Below, piece by piece: positions 22,482 through 45,370 of a DNA stretch of 64,000 bases. A program made the translations under genes and the position numbers. The DNA lies in NCBI RefSeq assembly GCF_048403405.1, contig NZ_CP183131.1; one strand, given 5' to 3'. Each line of letters begins with the position of its first letter. The stretch's first letter is position 1. The DNA comes from Escherichia coli. Lineage in GTDB: Bacteria; Pseudomonadota; Gammaproteobacteria; Enterobacterales; Enterobacteriaceae. The notes under the pieces are model-generated. The model saw only the letters and a program-made list of their open reading frames with translations. It did no database searches and was not told the DNA's origin.

Positions 22482-22823
22482 ATGACCATGAAACATGTAC
22501 TGAATATCGCGCTGATGGCTGTTGTTATTCTTGGCCTGGCTATGCTTGAGGCCACCAACTGGGGTTACGCAGTGCTGGCTATCCCGGCAGTGATTTGGGC
22601 CAAGTCGGTGCTCAACCTTCTGCACAAACTGCCGGTTCTGGCTGCTGCTTTTTGGATTCTGGTTGCTGTTTTCGCGTGGCAAGCGGCACTTGTTGGTATC
22701 CTGTTCTATGGCGTACTTGCGACCCCTAAAGCGCCAGCAAACACCAATGGCAAGAAAAGCCGAAAAGCCAATCTGATGGGCACTTACAGCTACGACTTTA
22801 AAACCGGCGAATGCTTTAGCTAA
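22482..22823 (+). CDS. Small membrane protein (paralog of 44971-45333)
   Basis: Three hydrophobic helices; N-terminus MKHVLNIALMAVVILGLAM… versus MKHVVNILLLGMVLLGIAM… in the paralog. Confidence 0.55.
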   Translation: MTMKHVLNIALMAVVILGLAMLEATNWGYAVLAIPAVIWAKSVLNLLHKLPVLAAAFWILVAVFAWQAALVGILFYGVLATPKAPANTNGKKSRKANLMGTYSYDFKTGECFS

Positions 22824-22837
22824 GACTGGCTCCACGG

Positions 22838-23317
22838 TTATTTCTCCTCAGCCTTCCTGATGGGCGCTCTCAGCGCTCTCAGGACAGCTTCTTCAAGAGC
22901 TGCGGCCCCTGCCCTATCACGTCGCTTTGTTAATGCCCCATATTGCTTCCTGATGGGTAGCATCAGCTCTTCGAGTTCATTGCGCTTCCTATCGTCGGCT
23001 TCAAGTTTCTCGCTTCGCGCCAAGGCTTCGGCTTGCTCGCTTTTTGCTTGCCACTCTATCTTGTCGCCTTGCACTTCCCATGCTTTAACGTAATGAGCAT
23101 CATCCAGACCTTTTGCTCCGTTGTCCGAAAACGAGGCCCCTGAGTAAATGCCACCGACAACCCAGCGCCTTTTGCTTTTTCCCTTTGAGAAATACATCTC
23201 ACGGCCTAAAACACCATCGCGCAAAGTGGCTACCGAGATAAATAGCCCAGCGTCCCCTTTCCTAAAGCCGCAGAACACAAACTCAAGCGGTTCGTATAAA
23301 TCACTCATGCTGATCAC
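22838..23317 (-). CDS. Hypothetical protein
   Basis: 159-aa ORF. Confidence 0.4.
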   Translation of the reverse strand: MISMSDLYEPLEFVFCGFRKGDAGLFISVATLRDGVLGREMYFSKGKSKRRWVVGGIYSGASFSDNGAKGLDDAHYVKAWEVQGDKIEWQAKSEQAEALARSEKLEADDRKRNELEELMLPIRKQYGALTKRRDRAGAAALEEAVLRALRAPIRKAEEK

Positions 23318-23711
23318 TCCGAAGAACAGACAAGACCTTCTCAGCTCGCTCCTGGAGGTCTATGAGTTCGGCAGCATCATTACCGCTCAATGACATGTCC
23401 CCGCCATAGAGGCGATACTCAACGCTGTCCATCGCCTGGCGAAGCAATCCTAGAAGAGCATTCACGTTTGCCGGTGTTGATAGGGCGACGGCTTCACCTT
23501 TCAGCTCACGTCCATTAAATTCCGACCACTCGGCTATGCCTGTCAGTTCGCAACAATTTGAGCAGGACATACTGGCAACATTCTGGGGATCGTCTGGACA
23601 GTGTTCATTGATGACAAAGTTCATCTCGTCACTGCCGCACTTTCCACAAATGATGTGTACTTTTTTGCCCATGCTGCTGCCCTTAGTGGAGAGTCTGCTC
23701 TTCCACAACAA
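23301..23711 (-). CDS. Hypothetical Cys-rich protein
   Basis: 136-aa ORF with CGKCGS…CSNCC. Confidence 0.4.
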   Translation of the reverse strand: MLWKSRLSTKGSSMGKKVHIICGKCGSDEMNFVINEHCPDDPQNVASMSCSNCCELTGIAEWSEFNGRELKGEAVALSTPANVNALLGLLRQAMDSVEYRLYGGDMSLSGNDAAELIDLQERAEKVLSVLRSDQHE

Positions 23712-23877
23712 TCATCCCGTCAACCAAGCTGATTGTGGCGGGACCGCAGTTACCCAGCACCTCAGCTTTGACTCCGTTGTTCAACGCGACATAAAGCCGT
23801 CTCGCCCCGTTGGTGACGCGGATGCCTTTCTGGTCGAGTTGTTCAAGCATTTCTTCGTAGGTAATTTTTTCGTCCAT
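23683..23877 (-). CDS. Hypothetical small protein
   Basis: 64-aa ORF. Confidence 0.3.
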   Translation of the reverse strand: MDEKITYEEMLEQLDQKGIRVTNGARRLYVALNNGVKAEVLGNCGPATISLVDGMIVVEEQTLH

Positions 23878-24128
23878 CAGTTCTCCTCAGCAAGGATCTC
23901 GTCGATGAGGTTCTTTGCTATCAATCTGGCATCCAAAGGGACAGCCAGGCTGTCAATTCTGCCTCTTTCATGGGCAACAATGAGTTGCGCCTTCCAAGCT
24001 ATCCCGGAAAGAGAAGCATCAGGTTCTTTACCTGAGCTTCTCATACATCTTGCGTTTCGGTACGCCGCCAGCCACTCAGGTCTGGTTGAGTTATAACGCC
24101 CAAGGCCAGCTTTTCGTTGGAAGCACAT
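23877..24128 (-). CDS. Hypothetical small protein
   Basis: 83-aa ORF; palindromic site and promoter-like motif upstream. Confidence 0.3.
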   Translation of the reverse strand: MCFQRKAGLGRYNSTRPEWLAAYRNARCMRSSGKEPDASLSGIAWKAQLIVAHERGRIDSLAVPLDARLIAKNLIDEILAEEN

Positions 24129-24140
24129 TCATCGCGCACC

Positions 24141-24169
24141 TTTACAGATTCATTTTATGATACTGTAAA
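24141..24169 (-). promoter_or_regulatory. Promoter-like palindromic element TTTACAG-N15-CTGTAAA
   Basis: Shares the catcattttatgat spacer with the other recurrent promoters. Confidence 0.35.
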
Positions 24170-24191
24170 CAATAAAAAGACACCTTGCAAG

Positions 24192-24210
24192 ACTTTCACA
24201 TGTGAAAGTT
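24192..24210. promoter_or_regulatory. Palindromic operator-like site ACTTTCACATGTGAAAGTT (copy 2 of 8)
   Basis: Between 24218-24766 and 23877-24128. Confidence 0.5.
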
Positions 24211-24217
24211 TTCTGGT

Positions 24218-24766
24218 TTACATCTGCTCGCTTGGATCAAACCCCAAAGCCTTGCACACGTCATCCAGGTCATCGAGCGTGAAGAATCCCAGCGTCAGTT
24301 CCCCGGAGCGCTTCGCGGGGTTATAGCGAACTTTGATAGGCCTACCCGTAGCATCGCTCATCAGGGTCTCCAGGCGCTTAATGTCTGCATCCCTGTCCAC
24401 TTCTTTGCCCTTCGCTATCGCCTCAAATTTATGAACCGGTGTCCTGGTATGCAGGAGATCCCTCAGGAGCTTTTCTCTCTTGCTGAAAGGTAACTTAGCC
24501 ACGGCCCTCACATGCCCCAGGGTGATCTTGCGTGGATTTCTGAGCCAGAGTGTTAGCTCTTCCTCCGATAGCGTACCGGCGCGTTTCAGGTGTGTAACCG
24601 TATAGACCTTCTCAATACCCAGATCCTCTCTGATCTGACTGTTTGAACGCCCCTCTCCGCTTAGGAACGCGACCACATAGGCCTTTTCTGCATCAGTCAT
24701 GCCTGGATGCTGGTGGTAGTAGTCAATGGCTTCTCTTGCATCGAGCAGTAGGGGTAGGTTGTTCAT
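24218..24766 (-). CDS. Putative HTH DNA-binding protein, weakly ParB/KorB-like
   Basis: 182 aa; segment …ITLGHVRAVAKLP… resembles the ParB GHARAL region; low certainty. Confidence 0.4.
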   Translation of the reverse strand: MNNLPLLLDAREAIDYYHQHPGMTDAEKAYVVAFLSGEGRSNSQIREDLGIEKVYTVTHLKRAGTLSEEELTLWLRNPRKITLGHVRAVAKLPFSKREKLLRDLLHTRTPVHKFEAIAKGKEVDRDADIKRLETLMSDATGRPIKVRYNPAKRSGELTLGFFTLDDLDDVCKALGFDPSEQM

Positions 24767-24928
24767 TCAGGACACCTTTTAGTCACATGACTATATCGAG
24801 GCTTATTCTACCCCCTATTTTAGTCACATGACTACTTACTGACATTTCGGCCCCCATCGCCGCCGATTTTTCTTGATTATAGGTTTGAATCTATATAGGA
24901 TTGCACCTATATTAAGTAAGGAGAAATC

Positions 24929-25279
24929 ATGTGGGTCATCGAGACAACCGACACCTTTGATGAGTGGTTCGATGCTCTGGATGATACCGATAGAGCAAAC
25001 GTGCTGGCTTCGATGATGGTGCTGCGAGATAGAGGCCCCATGCTGTCGAGGCCATACGCGGATACTGTTAACGGTTCATCCTACAGCAACATGAAAGAGC
25101 TTCGGGTCCAAAGCAAAGGAGATCCTATCAGAGCGTTCTTTGCGTTCGATCCAAAGCGTAAGGGGATTCTTCTCTGCGCCGGTAACAAGACCGGGGACGA
25201 GAAAAGGTTTTATGAAGTAATGATCCCAATTGCAGACCGTGAGTTTGCGGCGCACTTGGATAAATTGAAGAAGGAGTGA
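24929..25279 (+). CDS. higB: Type II toxin, RelE/HigB-like
   Basis: 116 aa; followed 4 bp later by an XRE-HTH antitoxin gene (toxin-first order typical of HigBA). Confidence 0.65.
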   Translation: MWVIETTDTFDEWFDALDDTDRANVLASMMVLRDRGPMLSRPYADTVNGSSYSNMKELRVQSKGDPIRAFFAFDPKRKGILLCAGNKTGDEKRFYEVMIPIADREFAAHLDKLKKE

Positions 25280-25283
25280 CGTT

Positions 25284-25586
25284 ATGGCAAGAACTCTTGA
25301 CCAAATGCTGGCAACAGAAAAGCCTGAGGTTGTTGCCAAAGCACAGAAAGCGGCCACTGAGATGTTACTGAACATCCACTTGGCAGAGCTTCGTGATCGC
25401 ATGAACCTTACCCAGGGGGAAATTGCTGCATCTCTGGGTGTGAGACAGCCGACAGTCTCCGAGATGGAAAAACCTGGACGAGATCTCAAGCTGTCGTCCA
25501 TTAAGCGGTACGTTGAGGCCTCCGGTGGCAAGCTACGCCTCGATGTTGAACTTCCGGACGGCACCCACTACGGCTTTGCCGTTTAA
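25284..25586 (+). CDS. higA: Type II antitoxin, XRE-family HTH (HigA-like)
   Basis: 100 aa; HTH LTQGEIAASLGVRQPTVSEMEK. Confidence 0.65.
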   Translation: MARTLDQMLATEKPEVVAKAQKAATEMLLNIHLAELRDRMNLTQGEIAASLGVRQPTVSEMEKPGRDLKLSSIKRYVEASGGKLRLDVELPDGTHYGFAV

Positions 25587-25612
25587 CTCGATACGCCCCG
25601 TTATGGGGCGTA

Positions 25613-25906
25613 TTACTTCTCTTGCTCTTCTTCCAGCCGTTTTCGGTATATCTCTCCTGCACGTTCCCTGCCATCGTCGGTCAGCCTAAAGGCCAGCTTT
25701 AGAGAAGCATTCCGGTACTTGTTCAACAGGCCGTTCTCCACCAGCGTGTGGCATGACGTTCGGAAGTTCGTTCCATGAATACCGCTCTGGCGAGCTGAAT
25801 TGATCATCTCCAGTATTTTTACACCTGGTACAGGCTCGGCTTTTCCACCGGCCTCAATTGCGTATAGAATGAACAAAACGTCTTTTTGAGTTGACGACAA
25901 TCTCAT
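25613..25906 (-). CDS. Hypothetical protein
   Basis: 97-aa ORF. Confidence 0.35.
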   Translation of the reverse strand: MRLSSTQKDVLFILYAIEAGGKAEPVPGVKILEMINSARQSGIHGTNFRTSCHTLVENGLLNKYRNASLKLAFRLTDDGRERAGEIYRKRLEEEQEK

Positions 25907-25993
25907 CCCTTCCCCTTATTCATGTCTGATATGAATAAGGCTCCCACGAAGGAGCCTTATGTAAACCTTATTCATGTGTCACATGATTAAGAT

Positions 25994-26266
25994 CTAGTTC
26001 ACGGAGTCTTTCAACCCCTTACCAGCTTTGAACCCAGGAATGTTGGCCGCCGCGATCTGGATGTTCTCTCCAGTCTGGGGATTCCGCCCGGTTCGCGCTG
26101 CGCGTTCCTTAACGTGGAAAGTACCAAACCCAGTGAGCGCTACTGTCCCACCCGCTTTAAGCTCCTCTGTCACTGAGTTGATCAGCGCATTTACCGCAGC
26201 TTCGGCCTTTGCTTTGCTAATGTCAGCGTCTTCGGCCACTTTCATAATCAGTTCACTTTTGTTCAT
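25994..26266 (-). CDS. HU-family nucleoid-associated DNA-binding protein
   Basis: 90 aa, [67 protein letters not shown]…. Confidence 0.85.
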
Positions 26267-26323
26267 CGTTATTCCTGTTTGTTTTCTTGGTTACTGTTTA
26301 CACCTGCATACTCTGGGGTGTGG

Positions 26324-26920
26324 TTAGTGCTTTCTTCGCCACTCCCAAGGGGGAGTTCTCTCCGATTCCGGTAATGCCCAGAGACCTCGCTTATCGGCTT
26401 TGGCTTCGGCCTCCAGCTTGAACAGCTCCGGTGTTTTGGCGTACTGCCGGTACACCCACGCACTCCCAGAACGGACCATTTCGGCATTGACCCATTTGCC
26501 ATCGACATAAAGGTTGGCGACCAGACGGCCATAACGGTCTTTGTCGATTTGCTCGACTTTAATCATTCGACCAAACACCAGATCGGACAACGCCTGTTTC
26601 GCCTTTGAGCCGTAGGGTTGTTTCTTCTCTGGGGTGTCGATTTCCGCCAGCCTTACCCGGTACTGGATTTTGCCGCTCCGGCAATCTTTCCCGGAGTCAC
26701 AGCTTTGTTCAGTCAGGACCTTGACCGTATCACCGTCAGACACCCCCACAACCTTCGCAGTAAAGGTTTCTGCCCATACCTGAGGGGCCACCACCAGCAT
26801 GGCTACCAGGAACGCTGAAACCCCCGTATTTTTCACAAAACCTAACCTCATAATCACTCCATCCAAATTACTTTTTTTTCCCAGCCGGTAGAGCCTTGGC
26901 CCAACAGAGCCTTGTTTCAT
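26324..26920 (-). CDS. Secreted thermonuclease (staphylococcal-nuclease-like)
   Basis: Signal peptide then SNase-like core (VVGVSDGDTVKV…RLAEIDTPE…YGR…); true start probably the internal Met (MRLGFVKN…). Confidence 0.7.
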   Translation of the reverse strand: MKQGSVGPRLYRLGKKSNLDGVIMRLGFVKNTGVSAFLVAMLVVAPQVWAETFTAKVVGVSDGDTVKVLTEQSCDSGKDCRSGKIQYRVRLAEIDTPEKKQPYGSKAKQALSDLVFGRMIKVEQIDKDRYGRLVANLYVDGKWVNAEMVRSGSAWVYRQYAKTPELFKLEAEAKADKRGLWALPESERTPPWEWRRKH

Positions 26921-27081
26921 CCACCTTGCTGTCTACGATTCGACAGGCATCCCAGTTAAGAGATGACCAGTGAGCAATGGCAGAGGCCAACCAGTACCAC
27001 GGTGCCGTAAACACCGGCTGGCCCCCTTCCTTCGTTTTAAATACCTGGTATCGCATGTTGATCCTCCTGTTTGGGTGAGGC

Positions 27082-27984
27082 TTAGGCCTCGTAATAGAAA
27101 TTTTTTGTGTCCGGATAGGGTTTAAAGCAATGAGCCGTGGCTCTCCCCAGGGAAAGCACTGAAGCCTCAGCTTCCGGCGCTTCCTCAGTGTCTTCACGAA
27201 ATTCCCCGCCAAGTTGCTTCACCCATTCGGCAGCGAGCTGCACACCTTCATCAAAGGGAACTTTGTTCTTTTGAAGCACATCCAGATAGGAAAGCAGCAA
27301 GCAGTGAGGCGTAATGACGGCGGTGTTCCAATCGGTTGCGAGCCGTGTTTCGTCCATATCTGCATACCAGGCATCAACCTGATGTTTCAATCCGATCTCG
27401 GCCATCATGCCGTGCTTACCGGCGACCTTTCTGCCTTCCTCTACCACATCAACCGGGGCGTCCCAGTAGAGGACTCCCCCGTCCGCTTCTTGGGTCGCAC
27501 AGGTTGCACCTTGCGGCCAATGCCTCCGTTCCATAACGAGCTCGCAGAGCGTTTGGTTGCCTACAGGAGCCTTGTAGTCCTCATCGAGATTCACCACGAT
27601 GGTTTCCGGCTCCTGTTCAACCGGTGGCAGGTATCTGGCGACCAGAGGCATTGTCAAAATCACAGCCCCATCCATGTGAAAGGATGTTGGAGCCTTCACT
27701 ATTCGGTCCATTACCCAGCACCAAGCATGAAGCAACCGATCCTCTACCTTGTCGTCAGCCTCAATCTCTTGAACGAACTGGTTGAAACGAACCTGACTAT
27801 CCAGAAACAGGCCTGTGCTCTGACACTTATCGCTGATCGTATGAATGAGCTCCGCCTGCTCCAGAAGCATTTCTCGGGTGACTTCCTCCACATCACCAAA
27901 TGCGTCAAACAACTTTGTCATGTAGTCACGAATTTGCATGTTCTTCCCCCTCGGCATCGAATTGCTTTGCAAGCTCAGGATCAC
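27082..27984 (-). CDS. Hypothetical protein
   Basis: 300-aa ORF. Confidence 0.45.
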   Translation of the reverse strand: MILSLQSNSMPRGKNMQIRDYMTKLFDAFGDVEEVTREMLLEQAELIHTISDKCQSTGLFLDSQVRFNQFVQEIEADDKVEDRLLHAWCWVMDRIVKAPTSFHMDGAVILTMPLVARYLPPVEQEPETIVVNLDEDYKAPVGNQTLCELVMERRHWPQGATCATQEADGGVLYWDAPVDVVEEGRKVAGKHGMMAEIGLKHQVDAWYADMDETRLATDWNTAVITPHCLLLSYLDVLQKNKVPFDEGVQLAAEWVKQLGGEFREDTEEAPEAEASVLSLGRATAHCFKPYPDTKNFYYEA

Positions 27985-28156
27985 CGGCCCAGCGAAGGGC
28001 GTCTCCCATATGCGTGAAAGCGCGTTTATTGTTATCCTGCTTATTCACCCTGACCGGCGTCTTTTGGTCACGAGGCTGTAGTAGCCAGTACCCGGCCTCT
28101 TCCCTGATTAGTTCTGCGGCCACCAGAAAGCCGTTCTTCGTTGCAATGATCATCAT
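27926..28156 (-). CDS. Hypothetical small protein
   Basis: 76-aa ORF. Confidence 0.3.
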   Translation of the reverse strand: MMIIATKNGFLVAAELIREEAGYWLLQPRDQKTPVRVNKQDNNKRAFTHMGDALRWAGDPELAKQFDAEGEEHANS

Positions 28157-28701
28157 CAGCTCCCGTGGTTAAGCCAGTAGGCATAGATAGTGATGGCAAG
28201 GCCTCCCGCGAGCACAATGACTGCGGCGGTACGCTGGACCCACTTCGATGCACCAAACCGCGCCAGGTGTCTCCCCAGGAACTGGAAAGGTGCTGTCTTT
28301 CCGATAGCGCGAATCACCCAGGAGATTGCCAACAGAAGGATGGCTGTGGCCGGGTATATACCAACCCCTAAGAGATTCATCTCTCCGACCGCGAGCTGAT
28401 AGATGAATGCCAACAGCATGGCTACCGCAGTCAATACAGCTACAACCTTGGTCCCGTTTCGCCAGTCCCACGCTCGACGTGCGTCACTGGTAAAACTCAC
28501 CATCGAGACAAGGAACGGCATAAATGGCAGGTTCATGCTGGTGGGTTTATCCATGAATGCGTCAAGACCCACAAACATGGCCGTCATCACCACATAGAAC
28601 AACAGGGCGGGGACAAGCATGTCGCGTAAAGACCGAACCTGGTTGGCGTTCGCGTTTTGAGTATTCGTCGTCATTGTGTTTGCCCCTTCAACATTCCCCA
28701 T
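28156..28701 (-). CDS. Integral membrane protein
   Basis: 181 aa with 4-5 hydrophobic helices. Confidence 0.5.
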
Positions 28702-29117
28702 AGCTGACGGTGAAGATCAGCGATTACCTTGTACGTCCCCTTCACTGCTGGTTGCTCAAGGGTCTTGAGCATCCACAAAGCAATAAACAGGCTGGAAAGC
28801 AGTGCCACCACCAACTGGATGTTGTGGCTACTCAAATAGACGGCATAGCCGTTTAGGCAGGCACTCAATAGCAACCAGACCCTGGCCGTCATCAGCCCCC
28901 AGCGGTGATAGGTCACGAGCAGGTAGGCTGTTACGACAGAACAGAGTGTCATGGCACCAGAAGTGGCTAGGTAAACGACCCATGTACTGGCCTCGCCAGT
29001 GACGTAAGTGCCACCAACGGAGAAGGACAAGCCAAAGATCCAAATTGCTGCATTCCGGAGTAGGGCATCAACAATGATGTAACTAGCAGCGAGATTGATA
29101 ATTCCGCGTTTTAGCAT
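28671..29117 (-). CDS. Integral membrane protein
   Basis: 148 aa with 4 hydrophobic helices. Confidence 0.5.
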
Positions 29118-29476
29118 TACCCCCTCCCGTTATTCTGATACCTGCCCAGCTCAGCCCTGAGCCTATTAATTTCTTCCGTGGCTTCGGCCAACTGCTCCCG
29201 ATACTTCTTGAACTGCTGATATGAATGCCAGGACTGTCCTTTCGATACTGACTTCGTGATGGCGGCGACCTCATCCGGCGTCAACCGGGTGAGCTGCTCT
29301 TCCGGATAGATCAGGATGGTGTTGCTGTCCCAGTCAAAGCCTGCGTGAATAGCTTTCACCCCCACTGTAGGGGTTCCACCAATCCCACCTGGCTGGTGGA
29401 TGACAAGCCTCAAAGGCGCTGAGGCCTTGTGTGGATGAAGGCTATCGAGAGCCTCTTTTGCTTCTTGTAACTCCAT
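29117..29476 (-). CDS. Hypothetical protein
   Basis: 119-aa ORF; palindromic site 40 bp upstream. Confidence 0.4.
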
Positions 29477-29515
29477 AGATTCACCTCATAGTGAAATCAG
29501 GCCCCGGAGAGCCTG

Positions 29516-29534
29516 ACTTTCACATGTGAAAGTT
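29516..29534. promoter_or_regulatory. Palindromic operator-like site (copy 3 of 8)
   Basis: actttcacatgtgaaagtt. Confidence 0.5.
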
Positions 29535-29961
29535 AATTTGCCTTCTGCTGTCTGGCAGAAACCCTCAAGGCCAGCGCCTTTTGCATGTCGGGCTGCTGGA
29601 AACGCACCTTGGTCCGATCAGGCCAACTGTCCATTTCATTGCACCGCAGGGTGTCTATGGCCGCATCACGGTAAACCTGATAGAAGTCGGTTCCACCTAT
29701 GGAGTTAATTGCCATCATGGCGGCAAACATCGGGTTACTGTTCATGACGCTTGTAAGAGTCTCGGGGGTCATTGGGGTGTCGCATGACTTGTTGAGGGCA
29801 ACCAGCAGGTCATTACCAACCAGGGCACAGGCAGCGCATACCTGTTTGGTATCATCCAAGGCCTTCGCGTATTCGTTGTTTGGCTGAGGGACGCTTGAGC
29901 AAGCCGACAGGACAAGCAGCCCCGCCAGAAGGCATCCCAATTTAGTTGTAATCTTGATCAT
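29533..29961 (-). CDS. Putative lipoprotein
   Basis: Lipobox LLVLSAC at the end of the signal peptide. Confidence 0.55.
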   Translation of the reverse strand: MIKITTKLGCLLAGLLVLSACSSVPQPNNEYAKALDDTKQVCAACALVGNDLLVALNKSCDTPMTPETLTSVMNSNPMFAAMMAINSIGGTDFYQVYRDAAIDTLRCNEMDSWPDRTKVRFQQPDMQKALALRVSARQQKAN

Positions 29962-29974
29962 CAGTTCTCACTCC

Positions 29975-29994
29975 ACTTTCACATGTGAAAGTTT
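29975..29994. promoter_or_regulatory. Palindromic operator-like site (copy 4 of 8)
   Basis: actttcacatgtgaaagttt, 14 bp upstream of the lipoprotein start. Confidence 0.5.
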
Positions 29995-30855: not shown

Positions 30856-30870
30856 ATCAAACTGCTCCTA

Positions 30871-34084: not shown

Positions 34085-34086
34085 GA

Positions 34087-34608: not shown

Positions 34609-34612
34609 GCTA

Positions 34613-35416: not shown

Positions 35417-35444
35417 TTTACTTTTCACAGTATCATTTTATAAT
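35417..35444 (+). promoter_or_regulatory. Putative sigma70 promoter TTTACT-N16-TATAAT upstream of the PAPS-reductase-like gene
   Basis: Contains the recurrent tatcattttataatactgtaaat motif. Confidence 0.4.
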
Positions 35445-35489
35445 ACTGTAAATCATAAAAACAACCCAGTAAAGAAAAAAGAGCGACTT

Positions 35490-36605
35490 ATGTTGAGACG
35501 AGAAAACCAAGGAGATTTGTTCGATGACCAGGTGGTGTTGCCATCACTGGAGTCGGTTCTTACCGGCATATCTTCCAGTCAGCGTTGTGACGATAGAACA
35601 ACGTACTTCTCCGCTCCGGATGTGGACCTGAGTTTGTACGATCACATCATTGTTTGCCTGTCTGGAGGCAAAGACTCGATTGCTGCGTACTTGCGGCTGG
35701 TGGACATGGGTGTTGATAAGTCAAAGGTGGAGTTCTGGCACCATGATGTTGATGGTCAGGAAGGCAGTTCGTTGATGGATTGGGCCTTCATGCGTGATTA
35801 CTGTCGTCAGCTCGGGGAAGAACTGGGTATCCCAATGTACTTCTCGTGGCTTGAGGGCGGCTTTGAGGGCAAAATGCTCAAAGACAATGCCTATAGCCAC
35901 CCCCATCGTGTAGAGACGCCTGAGGGGCTTCTGGTGCTGCCTAGAGACCATAAGCGCTCTAAGCCTGGTACGCGCCTTCGTTTCCCTCAGCAATCGCCAT
36001 CACTCCAAACAAGGTGGTGCTCATCAGCCTTGAAGATCGATGTTGGCCGCAGAGCTCTTAATAACCAGGAGCGCTTCAAGGGGAAGAAGATCCTTTTCAT
36101 CACTGGTGAGCGCCGGGAGGAAAGTGCAAACAGATCCAAGTACAACCAGCTTGAGGCTCATGCCTGTGACAGAAGATATGGGAAGACTGCACGGTTAGTT
36201 GATGCCTGGAGGCCCGTTCTTCATTGGACTGAGGAGGAGGTATGGGAAGTAATCGAGCGTCACCGCATCCTGGCCCCAGTCCCTTATCGCCTTGGCTGGA
36301 GCCGGTCGTCGTGTATGACCTGCATCTACAACTCACAGCGTATCTGGTCCACGATCCGTCACTACTGGCCTGAACGAGCTGGGAAAATTGCTCAGTATGA
36401 ACAAACCTTTGGTGTGACGGTATCAAGAAAAAAAATCGACGTAATAGATTTAGGTTCTGCTGTTGCGCCGATACAGATTAGTGATGTTGAGGCATTGGAG
36501 CAGGTATCCAGAGAAGATTACACGCTCCCGATTTTTGTGCCGGAGGGGCAGAAGTGGGTTCTCCCTGGTGGCGCATTTGGCCGAGAGGCCTGTGGTTCTG
36601 ATTGA
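35490..36605 (+). CDS. PAPS-reductase-family (PP-loop ATP pyrophosphatase-like) protein
   Basis: 371 aa; PP-loop motif CLSGGKDS; C-terminal Cys cluster. Confidence 0.7.
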   Translation: MLRRENQGDLFDDQVVLPSLESVLTGISSSQRCDDRTTYFSAPDVDLSLYDHIIVCLSGGKDSIAAYLRLVDMGVDKSKVEFWHHDVDGQEGSSLMDWAFMRDYCRQLGEELGIPMYFSWLEGGFEGKMLKDNAYSHPHRVETPEGLLVLPRDHKRSKPGTRLRFPQQSPSLQTRWCSSALKIDVGRRALNNQERFKGKKILFITGERREESANRSKYNQLEAHACDRRYGKTARLVDAWRPVLHWTEEEVWEVIERHRILAPVPYRLGWSRSSCMTCIYNSQRIWSTIRHYWPERAGKIAQYEQTFGVTVSRKKIDVIDLGSAVAPIQISDVEALEQVSREDYTLPIFVPEGQKWVLPGGAFGREACGSD

Positions 36606-37057: not shown

Positions 37058-37214
37058 AAAAACAGTGTTGATTATTTTTTGTTCAGTGATCAAAAGGATA
37101 AATATAAAGATCTTTAGATCTTTGTATAAAGGATTAAAAACGGTTAAAGACAGGTTAGGCGTTCTAAATCACCACTCAACACATTGATATTACTGGTGTT
37201 TTCATATTTATTCC

Positions 37215-37952: not shown

Positions 37953-38093
37953 TCCGTGCAGCTCCCCCATATGCGGAGGCATTCCGTTTCCGGTCCTGCC
38001 TGGTGGGCGTACCTTGTGCGCTTTCTTCTGGCATAAAAAAAGGCGCTGACGCGCCTATCTTTCTTTTCCCTGGGGGGTGGGAGATTCTGGTGG

Positions 38094-39194
38094 CTATCTC
38101 CCCTTACGTTGGGGTTCATCAATGATGTCGTGGTCGATCATGCCGTGCTTGATGGCCCGTAGCTCTGTCTGCTGCTTACGCTTGTTGGACGCCATCACCT
38201 GCTTCACGAAGTTCTCATGAGGCCTTATGACGTACCGCACGTCGATGACTCTGCGGCCATCCTTGATCTGGTTCGCGTCGTAGTCGCTTATGACCTCTTG
38301 TTTGATGAGGGCCTCCAGAGCGAGCTTCATGGCTCTGACGTTCTCCGGCATCCGTGGGCTCAATTCACGAGGGCTCTGGGTCAGGAAGCTGATAAGCGAT
38401 GGCGTGTACGGCGAATCTGGTGATGCTTGAGTCCAGTAGTGGCTCATTCGCTTGTAGATGTACCGTGCAAGAGGGGAGCGGATTTGCATTCCGATTTTGT
38501 AGTTGTACTGACGAAACGACAGATTCATGATCGATTCGTTTACCAGCGGGTTGAACTGCACATAGCACCTGGCGTTCCCGCCTTTCTTGCGAAACTCACC
38601 TCTGGTGGTCAGTCCCACCATCGGGAAGAAGCTGGAGCTGATGAAGGCTTCACCGTCATCACTGATACATTCGAGTGTTGCGCCACGACAAACCTGGATT
38701 GCTTCCTTGATTTCGTTCAGGTTGTACCCGTGACCCATCTTCGAGAGCTCTTTCTGGAGTTCGTACAGAGTGAACATGACTCCAGCCTTGCCCTCGATGA
38801 TATGGCCTTTCCCGTTCACTGCGAGCTTGCGTAGAGCATCCTCAAGGATTTCCTCTCGCTGTCCCGCGTAGATCAGCACGGTTCTTCCGTCATCCTTCTC
38901 GATGATGGCTGGCTTCACCTTCACCGTGAAATGCTGGCCTCTGATGGTGCATTGTCGTGTCACTACAGCGTTGGATAAATCTTCATGCTCACGCTTTTGG
39001 TCCCAAATGTACTTCGGCAGCGCATCGTAGATCTCGATGGTGTTGGAGTAGTCGTCTTTCTTGGCCGGAGATTCAATGATCTCAAACAGGCTCATTTGCG
39101 GTGAGTCTTTGATTACGTCGAGTTTCTCCAGGTCTTTGTCTTTGGTTCTCTTGCTCATGATTGTTCCGTCGATACTTTCTAGCTGGTGGTCCAT
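38094..39194 (-). CDS. repA: Iteron-type plasmid replication initiator RepA
   Basis: 366-aa ORF immediately upstream of the iteron array; true start may be the internal Met at 39158. Confidence 0.7.
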   Translation of the reverse strand: MDHQLESIDGTIMSKRTKDKDLEKLDVIKDSPQMSLFEIIESPAKKDDYSNTIEIYDALPKYIWDQKREHEDLSNAVVTRQCTIRGQHFTVKVKPAIIEKDDGRTVLIYAGQREEILEDALRKLAVNGKGHIIEGKAGVMFTLYELQKELSKMGHGYNLNEIKEAIQVCRGATLECISDDGEAFISSSFFPMVGLTTRGEFRKKGGNARCYVQFNPLVNESIMNLSFRQYNYKIGMQIRSPLARYIYKRMSHYWTQASPDSPYTPSLISFLTQSPRELSPRMPENVRAMKLALEALIKQEVISDYDANQIKDGRRVIDVRYVIRPHENFVKQVMASNKRKQQTELRAIKHGMIDHDIIDEPQRKGR

Positions 39195-39466
39195 GCCGCC
39201 AGCATTGTCAATGCTCCCGCTGCTACCGTCGCTGAAAACACTAGCTGGTAGATGCGACGCTTAGCCCCCGCAGTGCCGCTCATAAAACGCAGGGCTGCCG
39301 CTTCATATCGGAAATGAGCGAACTCACCCCGAAGGGTGCTATCTGTCCCCTGTGGCGATTGTGGGCGCTTTGACAGGGCAGGGCGAGGATGGCTGGCGAC
39401 TTTCTTGATCATCGCTTCACATTTCCCCAGTTTCGCCAATTCAGTGGCCGCTACAGATGCTGTCAT
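39179..39466 (-). CDS. Hypothetical small protein
   Basis: 95-aa ORF overlapping the repA 5' end. Confidence 0.3.
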   Translation of the reverse strand: MTASVAATELAKLGKCEAMIKKVASHPRPALSKRPQSPQGTDSTLRGEFAHFRYEAAALRFMSGTAGAKRRIYQLVFSATVAAGALTMLAAWTTS

Positions 39467-39470
39467 GTTG

Positions 39471-40037
39471 TCACACCTCGTCGCTATGTGTCTTGTTTAG
39501 CTGGCGCTCGTACTCGTTTAGCGCCCGGCGAATTTTTGCTAAGGCAGTGGCGCGTTGTCTTAACACGGCATACCTGGTTTCAACTTGCTGGATCAACTCT
39601 TGTGCCCAGACAGGCTCTTTCTTGAAGTGCGACATGCTGTAGGCATGACCGCGACCCTTCTTGATATGTGTCGATAGAACCCTTTTCTTTTGTCCGGGAA
39701 CTTGTTCGACAAATCTGTTGCGATACCACTCTGCAACGAGTGATACGCCTAGAATGCGAACCCGTGTACCGACACGCCCTTGTTCGTCCTCTGACGCTTC
39801 TTCACGCGCTGATTTGTGCGCGTTCCAGTACATGTCCGCTTCCTGCTGCGCCTCGACAGCAAGAACCGCTAAGGCGTGATCCAGTTTGCTCCGTACCTCT
39901 GCAACAAACTCTCGTCCCTCTGCCTCTAGCAGATCCTCTGTTATCTCGGATCGTTCTTCTTCGAGCTTCGGATCTAGCAGATCTAGCCATCGCTCTGTTG
40001 GTAGACTCACCTCAATACCCTCCCAATTCCTATCCAA
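39471..40037 (-). CDS. Hypothetical protein
   Basis: 188-aa ORF, charged/coiled. Confidence 0.4.
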   Translation of the reverse strand: MDRNWEGIEVSLPTERWLDLLDPKLEEERSEITEDLLEAEGREFVAEVRSKLDHALAVLAVEAQQEADMYWNAHKSAREEASEDEQGRVGTRVRILGVSLVAEWYRNRFVEQVPGQKKRVLSTHIKKGRGHAYSMSHFKKEPVWAQELIQQVETRYAVLRQRATALAKIRRALNEYERQLNKTHSDEV

Positions 40038-40260
40038 TTCCTATCCACATAACTATCTATCTGGAATTTAAAGCTGATTATTCCAATACTGGAATCTAGT
40101 TCTGTCACTAGGCTAACCCATCTTTGGAATTTGTCAAATTTCCCTCTATCTATCTGGAATCTTGATGCTCTTATTCTTTCACAGCCTCTTTACATATGAA
40201 TCTATATTTAAAGATTCCAGATATATTGGATATGGCATCAAAGATTCCAAATGCCTCTTT
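40020..40260. repeat. Centromere-like repeat region (parC-like) upstream of parM
   Basis: Multiple copies of (t)ctggaat / attccag in both orientations. Confidence 0.45.
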
Positions 40261-40508
40261 ACCACCGTCTCTCGATGCTGGAGGGCAAGCGGTTCTCGAT
40301 GCGAGGGTAAGGTCTGTTTATCTGAGCCTATCCGTGCAGCGTTCCCATAGGTTCCCTTACTCAACGATCAAAAAGCCACCGAAAAGCAACCTATATGCCC
40401 CTTTTGGGCAATTACACAGGCCATCTGTCCCCGCTTTTAGCCTTATTCTCTATCCAACACGCGGCAAGCAATCGAAAAGCAATCTAAAAGCAATCTTTGG
40501 AGGATTTC

Positions 40509-41492
40509 ATGAGTCAATTTGTTCTGGGTTTGGATATTGGTTACTCCAACCTGAAAATGGCAATGGGGTATAAAGGTGAGGAAGCTCGCACAGTCGTCAT
40601 GCCGGTGGGGGCAGGTCCATTGGAACTGATGCCACAACAGTTAACTGGCGGTGCAGGGACCTGCATTCAGGTTGTGATTGATGGAGAGAAATGGGTTGCA
40701 GGCGTCGAGCCTGACCGATTGCAAGGATGGGAGCGTGAGCTTCACGGCGACTATCCTTCGACCAATCCATACAAGGCTCTTTTCTACGCTGCACTCCTGA
40801 TGTCCGAGCAGAAGGAGATCGATGTGCTGGTGACTGGCCTGCCTGTTAGTCAGTACATGGACGTAGAGCGCAGAGAGGCGTTGAAATCTCGGCTTGAGGG
40901 TGAACACCAGATCACGCCAAAACGATCGGTAGCGGTTAAGTCTGTCGTGGTTGTACCTCAACCTGCCGGTGCTTACATGGATGTTGTAAGTTCAACCAAA
41001 GATGAAGACCTCCTGGAGATTATCCAGGGAGGAAAAACCGTTGTAATTGACCCTGGGTTCTTTTCTGTAGACTGGGTAGCTCTTGAAGAGGGAGAGGTCC
41101 GCTATCACTCATCTGGCACCAGCCTCAAGGCGATGTCGGTGTTGCTACAGGAAACGGACCGGCTAATTCAGGAAGACCACGGCGGTGCCCCTGGCATCGA
41201 AAAGATCGAGAAAGCTATTCGTGCCGGTAAGGCCGAAATCTTCCTCTACGGTGAAAAGGTATCGATCAAAGACTACTTCAAGAAAGCCTCAACCAAAGTC
41301 GCTCAAAACGCCTTGATCCCTATGCGGAAGTCAATGCGTGAGGACGGGATGGATGCTGACGTAGTTCTGCTGGCTGGCGGCGGTGCCGAGGCTTACCAAG
41401 ATGCGGCCAAGGAGCTTTTCCCTAAGAGCAGGATCGTACTGCCCAACGAATCCGTGGCATCCAATGCCAGGGGCTTCTGGTTCTGCGGCTGA
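40509..41492 (+). CDS. parM: Actin-like plasmid segregation ATPase (ParM/StbA family)
   Basis: N-terminal phosphate-1 motif LGLDIGYSNLK; GGAGG near 41190; start at ATG 40509 with ggagg RBS. Confidence 0.75.
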   Translation: MSQFVLGLDIGYSNLKMAMGYKGEEARTVVMPVGAGPLELMPQQLTGGAGTCIQVVIDGEKWVAGVEPDRLQGWERELHGDYPSTNPYKALFYAALLMSEQKEIDVLVTGLPVSQYMDVERREALKSRLEGEHQITPKRSVAVKSVVVVPQPAGAYMDVVSSTKDEDLLEIIQGGKTVVIDPGFFSVDWVALEEGEVRYHSSGTSLKAMSVLLQETDRLIQEDHGGAPGIEKIEKAIRAGKAEIFLYGEKVSIKDYFKKASTKVAQNALIPMRKSMREDGMDADVVLLAGGGAEAYQDAAKELFPKSRIVLPNESVASNARGFWFCG

Positions 41493-41508
41493 TAGATAGG
41501 AGGTCGTT

Positions 41509-41802
41509 GTGGCTGGTAGCAAATGGGATGGAAAAATATCTAATCTGAACATATCGGAGCAAGCCTTTCCGGAGCTCTATCGTGAACTGTCCCAGATGCA
41601 GCATAAGGCGCGTAGTGATCGGCTCCGCGCCCTTGCTCTATTGGGTCTTTATTCTCTTCGATTTTCTGGCAACATTGGGTCTTTTGAGCAACAGAGTTCA
41701 GAGAGTCAACCTGCACAGCATCAAAATTCGCCAGTGCAGACTGACGCAAAACTGAACTCTCAACGTGATTCACTTAAAGGAAAACTGATGGGCTCCGTAT
41801 GA
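41509..41802 (+). CDS. Putative ParR/StbB-like partition adaptor
   Basis: 97-aa ORF immediately downstream of parM; assignment by position only. Confidence 0.35.
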   Translation: MAGSKWDGKISNLNISEQAFPELYRELSQMQHKARSDRLRALALLGLYSLRFSGNIGSFEQQSSESQPAQHQNSPVQTDAKLNSQRDSLKGKLMGSV

Positions 41803-41803
41803 C

Positions 41804-42223
41804 ATGAAAGACCACGAGGAGTTCTCTACGCTATCAGCGGCTGAACGTAGAGAGTTAATAATCGCAGAGTTAAAGCGTAAAAGCCGCATTCGCACCCTGT
41901 TGCGAGGACTCCCGTTAGATGAAGTTCGGGAGATCATTGACAGAATGAAGGGCGTTCTCAATGAACTGGAGGAAGAGTACAAAAAGCGAGAAGAAGAAGA
42001 AAAAGAAAAGCGAGCTCAGGCTGAGCGAATAATGAGCGACATGGAATCCTGCGGTGTGGACATCGGCTTGCTCAACGAAATGTTCACGAGCAGATCAGAA
42101 CCTGATAATGCTAAATATTCAAAAGACGGAGTTTCGTGGAGTGGGCAAGGACGTCGCCCGGATGCTTTCAAGGGGTTGGGAGCTGTCGAGCTGGAGCGCT
42201 ACCGTATCCCACAGAAGAAGTAA
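41804..42223 (+). CDS. H-NS-family nucleoid-associated protein (Acr2-like)
   Basis: Coiled-coil N-terminus and C-terminal motif VSWSGQGRRP. Confidence 0.75.
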   Translation: MKDHEEFSTLSAAERRELIIAELKRKSRIRTLLRGLPLDEVREIIDRMKGVLNELEEEYKKREEEEKEKRAQAERIMSDMESCGVDIGLLNEMFTSRSEPDNAKYSKDGVSWSGQGRRPDAFKGLGAVELERYRIPQKK

Positions 42224-42282
42224 AAAAATGAGCGCCGCAAAGTTTGGGCGCTCATCTTCTGGTCCGAAATGTCATAGTCTAC

Positions 42283-42840
42283 TCAAGCACACTCTTTCTC
42301 CCCACCACCATGCCTTCCTTGTTCTTTGCAGAACGGACATTCAACGCAGGTTCTTTGATTAACAGAGGTGAAGTACGTACACTTGCAGTTGTCGCACACC
42401 TCCAGCATTGCGTCCCCACTTCTCAGCTCCGAAGCAAGACACCAGGCATCAGTAATATCAAACGGAGCCCACCGAGCACCTTTCATTCCGGGCACTTCTT
42501 TGCGGATTGCGTGATACATTCTAAATGCCTTGTTCAAGGCTTTGATGTTCACAGACCGCAACACGGCTTCTCCACCAATGTTGAAGTAGAGCTGCATTAG
42601 AAGAGAGGCCTGTATCTTGGATGTGTGACTATGAATCAGTGTCGCACCACCCCGGAAAGTTCTGGATTTTCGTTCCAGAGTATATCCGTCCCTCTCCAGA
42701 TCCTGGTAAAGCCGTCTGACCTGTTTGTAGGTCAGACCAGTCTCGATCATGATGATTTTTGTGATGTACCCAGCAAGGGCCATGTGTCGAGCTGTAACCC
42801 AGCGACCCAATGTACCAGAGTTGCCAATGTTCATCTCCAC
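42283..42840 (-). CDS. FlhC-like transcriptional activator subunit (SetC/AcaC-like)
   Basis: 185 aa; C-terminal zinc cluster CDNCKC…CVECPFC. Confidence 0.75.
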   Translation of the reverse strand: MEMNIGNSGTLGRWVTARHMALAGYITKIIMIETGLTYKQVRRLYQDLERDGYTLERKSRTFRGGATLIHSHTSKIQASLLMQLYFNIGGEAVLRSVNIKALNKAFRMYHAIRKEVPGMKGARWAPFDITDAWCLASELRSGDAMLEVCDNCKCTYFTSVNQRTCVECPFCKEQGRHGGGEKECA

Positions 42841-43439
42841 CTCCCACGTCCCTGTAGAGACTGTTGCAGTTTTTTCAATACCGGGTGTGTTAACTCTTCC
42901 CGGCTGTCATCGAGAATTTCTTCAATGATGCTCGGAGCAAAACGAAGCGTAAAATGCGTAACCGTTGTTCCAGACATGTGGCGCAACTGGCTGTCTGTTG
43001 CCTTAGCCACCAGCTCCGCAAGCTCTCTCGAAACCCCGAAAACTTCCTTTGCCATCTCCGGGTCTCTCGATGCGACGCGGTTAAATAGCAACCAGTAGGC
43101 AGCATCAAATTCATCAACACTATGGTTGATAAAAACTACAGGGTCGTAGTCGCCAGAGAGTCGCGTGATGATGTTCTGCTCTGCTGTTTCGAGTTTGAAA
43201 GAGATCAACACGCCAGAGGCCAGAGCTTCCAATTGGGAAGGTGTTGCCAGTGACAGCTTTTGAACGGTGTCCATGCCCAAAGAAAATTGTGAGGCCGCAT
43301 CATCTGGACGTTCTTTTGCCAGAGTGGATAGCAGGTTCCACAATGTCAGATCGAACTCGTAGACGTTTCTATCAGCTTCTTCTTGATCGAGGTTGACGGC
43401 TCTTGCATCCCACGCACCAATAATATCCAGTTCCAACAT
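42831..43439 (-). CDS. FlhD-like activator subunit (SetD/AcaD-like)
   Basis: Start taken at Met 43439 with gaggggg RBS; FlhD-like helical region; overlaps the FlhC-like gene start. Confidence 0.55.
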   Translation of the reverse strand: MLELDIIGAWDARAVNLDQEEADRNVYEFDLTLWNLLSTLAKERPDDAASQFSLGMDTVQKLSLATPSQLEALASGVLISFKLETAEQNIITRLSGDYDPVVFINHSVDEFDAAYWLLFNRVASRDPEMAKEVFGVSRELAELVAKATDSQLRHMSGTTVTHFTLRFAPSIIEEILDDSREELTHPVLKKLQQSLQGRGRWR

Positions 43440-43449
43440 TCCGCCCCCC

Positions 43450-43983
43450 TCACAAATCACGAAGGTTGCGATAGATAGCCAAGACTCGGCTACCATAGTT
43501 TCTGGCTCGGATTTCGTCTTCCCAGGCGTGATAGCGGCCAACGCCAAGCTCCAAGTCATTTGGAGATGACTGAATGGCTTCTGATAGCACCTCTGCCCCA
43601 ACCATGACGTTGGTCTCTGGGTCGAGAAGATCTGCTGGAGAAGAAACTCTATGACCATTCCACCGGATGCTCACTTGCATAAACCCGACATCAATGGCAC
43701 GACCGTACTGCTGCTGAAACTCAGCGAGCTTAGCCTTTGCCTGATCTTCCGACTTAGCATAGAAAGGAAGCCCAGGAACGCGAAGCGTCCAAGGCCAAGG
43801 ACTTATAGAGCCATTACCTCTCCCTGATGCAGATTCGGCCAATGCGACCGAATACACTAGAAGAGGGTCGAGGTTATATGCTTTCGCTGCTTTGTCGAAG
43901 ATGGTTCCGCTCAGGTCAATAGCATTCGCTGTTGATGAAAGGAGAGCCGCAGACAGAACTAGCGCCTTGGCTTTGTTCTTCAT
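43450..43983 (-). CDS. Lytic transglycosylase (SLT domain) with signal peptide
   Basis: 177 aa; conserved ES and AYN region of family 1 lytic transglycosylases. Confidence 0.7.
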   Translation of the reverse strand: MKNKAKALVLSAALLSSTANAIDLSGTIFDKAAKAYNLDPLLVYSVALAESASGRGNGSISPWPWTLRVPGLPFYAKSEDQAKAKLAEFQQQYGRAIDVGFMQVSIRWNGHRVSSPADLLDPETNVMVGAEVLSEAIQSSPNDLELGVGRYHAWEDEIRARNYGSRVLAIYRNLRDL

Positions 43984-44255
43984 CAGCTTGCCTCCTTATG
44001 TCTGAGGGGTATTTCGTGTTCTTCGTCGTACCGCTCCGGCCAAATCTCAGACGGCTTCACACCCAAAGCTGTAGCTATCTCATGTTCCCAGCGTGGACTG
44101 GGCTTATAGAGTGCCGTAGACACCACCTGCCGAGATGTTTTGTGTTTTCTGCCCAATGCGGCCAGAGAAAGCCCCTGGATCTTGAGTTTGTACTTGATCC
44201 ACTCACGTTTCTTCTCTGGGTCGCTTGGGATGTCTATCAATTGGCATTTATCCAT
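43983..44255 (-). CDS. Ner/Nlp-like small DNA-binding protein (Acr1-like)
   Basis: 90 aa with HTH LSLAALGRKHKTSRQVVSTAL. Confidence 0.7.
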   Translation of the reverse strand: MDKCQLIDIPSDPEKKREWIKYKLKIQGLSLAALGRKHKTSRQVVSTALYKPSPRWEHEIATALGVKPSEIWPERYDEEHEIPLRHKEAS

Positions 44256-44826
44256 TGTTTGCCACCCTTTAAACTGCGTTGTTAGCCATACAAAAAGTGC
44301 GTTATTCGATGAACGCTTTTAGAGTTCTTCTATTGTCACAAACTGACACATTTTGCGCCTTTACAAGCCCAAATAATGATGCTGTCAACAATAAAAAACC
44401 TTTAAAAACATACACTTAACTTTGTACCGACGGAACAAAGTTACAATACTTTTAGTAATCAATGGGATACGGATATTTTTGCGATAGTAATGGAAAGTGC
44501 GCCAAAAGAATGGCGGAAATAGCGCACGGGGAGTGCGGTATTTTGTGATATTAAATAGCGTTTAGGTATAAGTGATTTTAGGGATACAGCGAGGGCTGAA
44601 ATTGCGAATACAGCAGGAGCTGAGGAGGGCAGGGAAGGCAAAGGCGCATCCCGACCACACAAGGATGATGGTGTTTACAGAAAGAGATATTTGAGAAAGA
44701 GAACTCTGCGGTGTTGCAGATGGGGACCAAAGCGTTAGCAATGGCCTATTCCATAGTGTATGCGATTTGTTTGACATGTTCAACTATGTAATGCTTTGTC
44801 AATAAACGCCTTGTTCCGTAAGGGCA

Positions 44827-44846
44827 AACTTTCACATGTGAAAGTT
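44827..44846. promoter_or_regulatory. Palindromic operator-like site (copy 7 of 8)
   Basis: aactttcacatgtgaaagtt in the 715-bp gap between the Ner-like gene and 44971. Confidence 0.5.
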
Positions 44847-44970
44847 TGAGGGCAAATTCTAATCGAAGAAGTTGCCAATGGAATGGTTGTTTAGCAAAAA
44901 ATAGTCAAACTTTCACAGTTGCATTTTTTGATGCCGTGGTAAACTGGAGGTAAAGAGTAAGGGGGTTGAT

Positions 44971-45333
44971 ATGAAACATGTGGTCAATATTCTTCTGCTG
45001 GGAATGGTGCTTCTGGGAATAGCCATGATGGCTGACACACCTTGGGGACTTGGTGTGGCGCTGGCTCCCTTCGGCGTTTGGGGTGCTCGTTTCCTATTTC
45101 TGGTTCACAAAAGCCTTTGGGCTGCTGTTATCTTTTGGGGAGGGATCGCTTACTTCCAGTGGCAAGTTGCTTTGGTTGTCGGGGCTCTGTTTGGACTAAC
45201 GTGCTTTATCCGCGTTGCGCGGTCAGCATATAAAGAGGCACCACCTACCCGGCGCAGAAAAAAACAAACTGGTGGGTTTCAAGATTCCTATGATTTTGAC
45301 CAGCGCTTCCATATTGGAGCTGGAGACGAATAA
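44971..45333 (+). CDS. Small membrane protein (paralog of 22482-22823)
   Basis: 120 aa; same upstream motif tttcacagttgcatttttt as the paralog. Confidence 0.5.
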   Translation: MKHVVNILLLGMVLLGIAMMADTPWGLGVALAPFGVWGARFLFLVHKSLWAAVIFWGGIAYFQWQVALVVGALFGLTCFIRVARSAYKEAPPTRRRKKQTGGFQDSYDFDQRFHIGAGDE

Positions 45334-45370
45334 GGGGGCCTGCTGGCCCCCTTATTATTTGGTTGGTCTT

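Follow-up and report, generated by a model that had tools for sequence, protein, structure and literature searches.

Entry exclusion in IncC and IncA plasmids relies on the eexC/traG system common to both groups (PMC11493245; Humbert et al. 2019; Rivard et al. 2024), and here we compare with it two small genes in a 64,000-nt stretch of Escherichia coli contig NZ_CP183131.1 (the window, meaning the whole stretch that was analysed), namely a gene for a 120-aa protein, which is eexC itself, and a gene at 22488–22823, which is an ancient paralog of eexC. Deletion of eexC from the recipient relieves exclusion, and the full exclusion exerted by pVCR94Sp is reproduced when eexC is expressed together with sfx (vcrx085) alone, sfx encoding an outer-membrane surface-exclusion lipoprotein (PMC11493245). 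IncC plasmids rank with the chief vehicles of multidrug resistance in enterobacteria and Vibrio, and the range of plasmids and islands able to enter a cell in which one already resides is shaped by exclusion. In the abstract of Humbert 2019, recipient EexC is said to recognise donor TraG, with the EexC C terminus setting the exclusion group or specificity.

For the SXT/R391 elements, Marrero and Waldor reportedly found that the cytoplasmic C-terminal part of Eex determines which donor TraG is excluded. The Eex/TraG pair of these elements is reminiscent of EexC in that a small recipient inner-membrane protein is encoded beside traG within a related, syntenic transfer machinery; however, according to the published comparison, IncA and IncC eex have no sequence similarity to SXT/R391 eex. 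We know of no second eex copy in SXT/R391. The TraS/TraG system of F-like plasmids likewise uses an inner-membrane exclusion protein that targets donor TraG, and TraS is paired with the outer-membrane protein TraT, whose IncC counterpart is Sfx, but no sequence relationship to TraS was detectable (Pfam scan, no hit). IncHI1 (EexA/EexB) and IncI (ExcA/ExcB) set the example of plasmids that encode two exclusion proteins; unlike the IncC case, in which two homologous predicted inner-membrane proteins are encoded 22 kb apart, the members of those pairs are not paralogs of this kind and act at different layers or from overlapping genes.

Compared with EexC, the paralog shares 36 % identity, a predicted membrane core, a basic SYDF-containing tail, a promoter block and the same plasmid lineages, whereas it differs in lying away from traG, in a DxxTGE tail end where EexC has an acidic GDE/GDD and in having no parS near its promoter. 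Given the homology, the shared expression signal, the co-retention with eexC, the occurrence in traG-bearing elements and the tail-centred variation, we put at roughly 50 % the probability that the paralog is a second Eex-type factor with a specificity of its own.

Identification of eexC and its paralog

The genes in question and the features adjoining eexC are as follows.

22488–22823, plus strand: eexC paralog, uncharacterised, 111 aa (113 aa from 22482), RefSeq WP_000683476.1
44971–45333, plus strand: eexC (vcrx145), 120 aa, entry-exclusion factor proven in IncC and IncA plasmids
45329–45356, no strand assigned: hairpin terminator, a GC-rich 12-pair stem followed by a T-rich tail, common to the convergent eexC and traG
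45371–48985, minus strand: traG (vcrx144), 1204 aa, donor-side target of EexC (PMC11493245)

The gene at 44971–45333 is eexC, encoding the inner-membrane entry-exclusion factor that acts in recipients against donor TraG, because published primers match it base for base. Primers eexCNdeI.f, eexCSalI.r, 94deI145 and 94eex-lacZ (Rivard et al. 2024, S1 Table), which were used for eexC cloning, vcrx145 deletion and a lacZ fusion at the third codon (PMC11493245), are all found exactly within 44931–45360; eexCNdeI.f (ATGAAACATGTGGTCAATATTCTTC) corresponds to the first bases of the gene and eexCSalI.r (the reverse complement of TTGGAGCTGGAGACGAATAA) to its last. The traG–eexC–acr1 order in the window also agrees with the published order.

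The original prediction, made from the letters alone, had singled out two paralogous small membrane proteins encoded against the prevailing strand as candidates for entry exclusion or immunity-like functions. Both open reading frames (ORFs) do lie on the plus strand, at 22482–22823 and 44971–45333, opposite to nearly all their neighbours, and the 120-aa gene is indeed beside traG, convergent with it and 37 bp apart. For this gene the guess at entry exclusion was right, its function having already been published (PMC11493245); the eexC half of the finding is thus already known. The proposed paralogy, for which an alignment of the two proteins had been suggested as a check, was borne out by BLASTP (36 % identity and 50 % positives over 111 residues, E value 7e-20). 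Similarity peaks in the hydrophobic N-terminal ~80 residues, and the tails have the SYDF motif in common. While the 113-aa ORF is present as predicted, its start had to be revised: translation most likely begins at the second ATG (22488) and yields 111 aa from MKHV, as in EexC, because the AAGGAG at 22474–22479 lies 8 nt before the second ATG and only 2 nt before the first. The NCBI annotation also starts the gene at 22488.

Conservation of the two-copy arrangement

A profile search of 1.84 billion representative proteins returned only 46 clusters, both genes included, so that the Eex family is small and specific. Neither protein matched a Pfam family, and NCBIfam gave chance-level hits only.

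Two copies are present in each of five reference plasmids (IncC, represented by the window; IncA pRA1; pAsa4c; pAhD4-1; and the pAQU1 type), such that the two-copy layout extends over four lineages: IncC, IncA, the Aeromonas pAsa4c/pAhD4-1 type and the Vibrionaceae pAQU1 type. In all five, copy 1 is positioned between acr1 and traG, convergent with traG, and copy 2 lies 20–25 kb off in the nuc/HU/par region on the strand opposite to its neighbours; a local hidden Markov model search of the stretches fetched from each element found exactly the expected copies and no others. Both clades are orthologous across the IncC, IncA and Aeromonas plasmids, and the two genes were never homogenised, retaining ~35–40 % mutual identity in every lineage. 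Protein identities between lineages were as follows.

IncC versus IncA: paralog 87 %, Eex 86 %, TraG 97 %
IncC versus pAsa4c: paralog 54 %, Eex 49 %, TraG 78 %
pAsa4c versus pAhD4-1: paralog 71 %, Eex 72 %, TraG 89 %

Ratios of nonsynonymous to synonymous substitution rates (dN/dS) were 0.21–0.29 for the paralog, 0.17–0.18 for eex and 0.05–0.07 for traG. These values (0.17–0.29 for the two small genes together) indicate that both are under purifying selection, with nonsynonymous change proceeding three to four times faster than in traG.

Such constraint on the plus frame bears on the view that the 113-aa ORF is functionless, either a duplicate in decay or an ORF that arose by chance, a view that we consider highly improbable. 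Loss or truncation of the paralog in about a tenth of IncC-type plasmids and the existence of IS26 fusion variants would be in keeping with decay; however, four plasmid lineages carry it intact and in a syntenic position, and its promoter and ribosome-binding site are conserved. The overlapping antisense ORF 22440–22835, which we rejected as the gene in its place, is neither annotated nor conserved, and this also speaks against decay. The paralog is therefore a real, old and conserved gene and a new member of the eexC family.

Approximately 90 % of IncC and IncA plasmids carry the paralog, about one in ten plasmids with one family member are without the other, and the paralog is dispensable for plasmid survival. 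It is positioned at the edge of a hotspot for insertion of ARI-B-type resistance islands, a location that would account for the truncated fusion proteins in databases: several database proteins are truncated or frameshifted paralog variants, some of them likely derived from IS26-type insertion events. In pVIC11-A from Vibrio cholerae (stretch 26013–26905), an IS26-bounded resistance island adjoins the 156-aa gene and the paralog is gone. A 144-aa family member convergent with traG was also found in a chromosomal contig (GCA_031963415.1, stretch 10001–14057), at a locus that looks like an integrated element with SLT, FlhD/FlhC-type activator and MobI genes, suggesting that the family extends to chromosomal IncC-related elements.

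A predicted promoter common to both genes

The original prediction had also noted matching elements upstream of the two genes. The match is real: the 19-mer TTTCACAGTTGCATTTTTT occurs exactly at 22423–22441 and 44911–44929, where 0.03 chance matches would be expected in the window with up to three mismatches allowed. The shared block exceeds the 19-mer, and the 28-nt pattern GTTGCATTWTWT-N5-YRTGNTANNNT is found in the window at these two sites only. We read from it the following putative elements.

44918–44945, plus strand: putative eexC promoter core, with TTGCAT at 44919–44924, a 15-nt spacer, TG at 44937–44938 and the -10 TAAACT at 44940–44945
22430–22457, plus strand: putative paralog promoter core, with TTGCAT at 22431–22436, TG at 22449–22450 and the -10 TAGGAT at 22452–22457
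22474–22479, plus strand: putative paralog ribosome-binding site, AAGGAG

Ten orthologous upstream regions align as (C/T)A(C/T)(A/G)GTTGCATT(T/A)T(T/A)T, 5 nt and (C/T)(G/A)TG-n-TAnnnT, with the -10 located 19–24 nt before the start codon. The block is kept upstream of eex in IncA, pAsa4c, pAhD4-1 and pVb677 and upstream of the paralog in IncA, pAsa4c, pAhD4-1 and pVPSD2016-2, and the paralog ribosome-binding site is conserved alongside it across lineages. As in extended -10 promoters, TGn precedes TAnnnT at both genes (TGGTAAACT upstream of eexC, TGATAGGAT upstream of the paralog), and the TG, T-12, A-11 and T-7 are retained in all 10 of the 10 orthologous promoters. Extended -10 sigma-70 promoters can work without a good -35. 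The TTGCAT is only 15 nt from the -10, as opposed to the canonical spacer of 16–18 nt, and a canonical sigma-70 scan (TTGACA, 16–18 nt, TATAAT; at least 9 of 12 matches) called no site at either motif, so that the promoter call draws on conservation across lineages. This failure of the scan fits the very low activity published for an eexC'-'lacZ fusion, which was ~150-fold weaker than sfx and AcaCD-independent. Transcription would be predicted to start about 7 nt downstream of 22457 and 44945. Overall, the shared element is best read as a conserved, weak, predicted extended -10 promoter, GTTGCATT...TGnTAnnnT, that both genes inherited, and not as a regulatory element of a special kind.

A repressor operator formed by the inverted repeat TCACAG...CTGTGA was considered and rejected as a conserved feature, since neither the Aeromonas nor the Vibrio orthologues have retained this repeat. 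The window also holds a third, diverged copy of the motif.

35423–35441, plus strand: TTTCACAGTATCATTTTAT, 3 mismatches, upstream of the PAPS-reductase-family gene vcrx007 (35490–36605, plus strand)

The particular form of this third copy is conserved in IncA and pAhD4-1; in pAhD4-1 it is a perfect 9-bp inverted repeat, TTACAGTAT-N9-ATACTGTAA, and a related form occurs in IncA.

parS sites near the promoters

A partition site is found on the eexC side.

44826–44847, no strand assigned: consensus parS, 22 bp (AAACTTTCACATGTGAAAGTTT), ~70 bp upstream of the eexC promoter

Binding of ParB at the parS upstream of R55_174/eexC was shown by electrophoretic mobility shift assay (PMC10954446), and it is conceivable that ParB (KorB domain) represses eexC from a distance. 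The parS core upstream of eex is present at the same place in other lineages, whereas no parS site lies near the paralog promoter.

The first bases of the 19-mer, (AAAC)TTTCACA, equal one half of IncC parS; an IncC parS, however, is a symmetrical TTTCACATGTGAAA with AAAC/GTTT flanks, and the 19-mer supplies one half only. A functional role for this half-site was rejected, since it is not kept in the Aeromonas/Vibrio orthologues and an intact flanked site is needed: removal of half of the DR2 site abolished the incompatibility effect, and the bare 14-bp core was not bound (PMC10954446). The core itself, TTTCACATGTGAAA, is the published 14-bp parS core of the IncC ParB (KorB-domain) partition system and has eight exact copies in the window (0.3 expected), at 20858, 24194, 29518, 29977, 33561, 34640, 44830 and 51558. 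Most are intergenic, and one lies just upstream of traF.

Membrane core, tails and tail exchange

The AlphaFold model of the paralog (mean predicted local distance difference test score 70.6) contains helices at residues 2–22, 26–37, 39–45, 49–62 and 64–77, and a tail that is disordered from residue 78, with a basic cluster after the last helix. The hydropathy and charge distribution of the paralog would fit a protein that crosses the membrane four times and has its N and C termini on the cytoplasmic side. The paralog and EexC are both predicted to have a membrane core of four helices and, behind it, a C-terminal tail that is basic and disordered. A Foldseek comparison of the model with the PDB returned no meaningful match.

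Family members are alike in the membrane core and unlike in the tail. In Eex-clade tails, a basic cluster precedes S-x-D-hydrophobic, and the end is usually acidic (GDE or GDD); the paralog clade in IncC, IncA and Aeromonas keeps a tail motif of its own, D-[FYVI]-x-T-G-E, that the Eex clade lacks. In the pAQU1 lineage, an NPxxGL...GN motif is found in the tails of both copies. The tail is the most variable part of the paralog, with a dN/dS of 0.15–0.36 that is not clearly above that of the membrane core.

The IncC-IncI1 cointegrate pS7697-1 provides a case of change confined to the tail. Its neighbouring proteins have the same accessions as those of standard IncC, but its paralog is only 73.5 % identical; the allele (stretch 6001–6357) differs in the last ~40 codons only, and at the DNA level the difference is limited to window positions 22690–22860 (~170 bp, made up of the tail and a short stretch following it), the surrounding 5 kb being 98 % identical. 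Such a tail-only exchange is what would be expected of a specificity module, although it is not proof of one. Tails like that of pS7697-1 (GYDYETGELL) are also encoded by IncC-like contigs of Serratia fonticola and of a metagenome bin assigned to the Oceanospirillaceae.

These tails bear on whether the paralog might simply back up EexC, redundantly and with unchanged specificity (TraG, exclusion group C), to add dosage or robustness, a reading that we regard as unlikely. Tails alike in architecture (basic cluster plus SYDF), the motif common to both tails of the pAQU1 lineage and the use of the same promoter for both genes are all compatible with a back-up. However, the two genes have been kept distinct in every lineage at about 35–40 % identity, the DxxTGE motif sets the paralog clade apart and a purely redundant copy is rarely retained in the long term.

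In a sliding comparison of TraG, we observed one sharply variable patch at residues about 594–681 and a milder one at 832–950; at residues 624–651, identity to IncC TraG falls to 75 % for IncA and 14 % for pAsa4c, from about 78–97 % overall. The variable patch is presumably near the exclusion determinant of SXT TraG (residues 606–608). These patches are suggestive, but they cannot assign a target.

A possible second exclusion factor

An exclusion role for the 113-aa gene is plausible on the grounds of homology, shared promoter and conserved synteny. As a second Eex-type factor, the paralog would be expressed constitutively but sparingly from its weak extended -10 promoter and would reside in the inner membrane of cells that carry the plasmid. 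There its tail, on the cytoplasmic side, would recognise a component of an incoming type IV secretion apparatus, either TraG or a TraG variant, with a specificity unlike that of EexC.

Several observations weigh against this proposal. The paralog adjoins neither traG nor any other transfer gene, its distance from traG being 22 kb in IncC and comparable in IncA, pAsa4c, pAhD4-1 and the pAQU1 type, while known exclusion genes usually abut their target gene. eexC and sfx suffice for the full exclusion of pVCR94Sp, leaving a third factor unneeded among those plasmids (PMC11493245), and natural IncC plasmids that have no paralog following IS26 events are still typed as conjugative. Neither a Pfam or NCBIfam family nor a structural analogue (Foldseek, PDB) gave independent functional support. 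In the pAQU1 lineage, and partly in IncC, the tails are closer between paralogs than to their orthologues, and this likeness would fit a shared target as well as a distinct one.

The location of the gene in a region of maintenance and unknown-function genes, 22 kb from traG, together with the absence of parS where eexC has one in all lineages, could instead point to a role other than exclusion, such as modulation of the plasmid's own TraG or mating pore in donors, protection from damage caused by repeated matings or an unrelated membrane function. Host fitness changes when eexC or sfx is deleted, which shows that proteins of this kind have side effects. Yet the only detectable relatives are of the Eex type, those whose context was examined sit in traG-carrying elements, and fast change with tail swapping is as expected of a specificity protein; we therefore view a non-exclusion role as possible but rather doubtful. 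If the paralog, as a second Eex-type factor, does exclude, the IncC exclusion model, the definition of exclusion groups and the interpretation of TraG substitution by SGI1 would all have to be revisited; if it does not, it would be a rare natural case of an Eex-fold protein recruited to another role.

The laboratory plasmid pVCR94deltaX and the published exclusion model

In the current model, eexC and sfx account for all IncC exclusion, and this model was built on a plasmid derivative that has no third candidate. pVCR94deltaX was made by deleting a large fragment between vcrx028 and vcrx029 (sul2), part of which was never assembled. One edge of the deletion could be placed in the window.

24775–24810, minus strand: homology arm of primer vcr94W1R (PMC3915882, Table 2), exact match, edge of the deletion

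This arm falls between higB (vcrx028) and the gene for a 182-aa regulator, and from its position the deletion would run from ~24774 to lower coordinates, through the paralog and as far as sul2 in pVCR94; the sul2 arm was not found in the window. In the table from the transposon-directed insertion site sequencing (TraDIS) of Rivard et al., the order is vcrx028, kanR, vcrx029, vcrx030 and parA, and the TraDIS insertion indices imply gene lengths that agree with those of higB, sul2 and a 312-bp gene lying upstream of parA. On the basis of primer mapping and the TraDIS gene list, rather than of the plasmid sequence, we conclude that pVCR94deltaX and its derivatives are without the paralog region. 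The paralog is consequently outside the published eexC and sfx result, because the pVCR94Sp and pVCR94Kn experiments used plasmids without it. A literature search, the scope of which did not include Humbert 2019 or Ambrose and Hall 2022, found no test, mention or name of the eexC paralog.

The paralog might exclude pores that EexC does not recognise, notably ones rebuilt with the TraG of SGI1-type islands, but we think this improbable. The difference between the pVCR94deltaX derivatives of the Burrus laboratory, which have lost the paralog, and the approximately 90 % of natural IncC plasmids that carry it could explain the disagreement over the importance of SGI1 traN-to-traHG, and the same difference could explain the disagreement on whether SGI1 overcomes IncC entry exclusion, although this is only a lead. 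Judging by its title, Ambrose and Hall 2022 reportedly has SGI1 versus IncC entry exclusion as its subject. A preprint describes a long-standing controversy over the SGI1 tra region, Carraro 2017 versus Ambrose and Hall 2022, and Carraro 2017 used pVCR94 derivatives.

Plasmid context

The window is IncC plasmid backbone and belongs to a multidrug-resistance plasmid. The surroundings of traG matched more than 1000 plasmid records (929 at ≥99 % identity, that is, at least 99 %), typed as IncC, MOBH and MPF_F, from hosts including Klebsiella, Salmonella, Escherichia and Vibrio; those of the 113-aa ORF matched 1030 plasmid records (962 at at least 99 %). The window corresponds to standard IncC coordinates read backwards across the replication origin, in the order parAB side, 113-aa gene, higBA, nuc/HU, dsbA, repA, mobI and stbA, and then, further along, acr2, acaCD, acr1, the 120-aa gene, traG, traH and traF.

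No terminator follows the paralog, and its stop is 14 bp from that of a convergent 159-aa gene (22838–23317, minus strand); a transcript of the paralog would therefore continue antisense into this gene. Downstream of the paralog is a conserved block of unknown function on the minus strand (18372–19835 and neighbours), encoding a DUF1643 protein, proteins of 165 and 310 aa and a 487-aa AAA ATPase, which is joined by a DUF2997 gene in relatives. The block around 18372–19835 is, like the paralog, absent from pVCR94deltaX.

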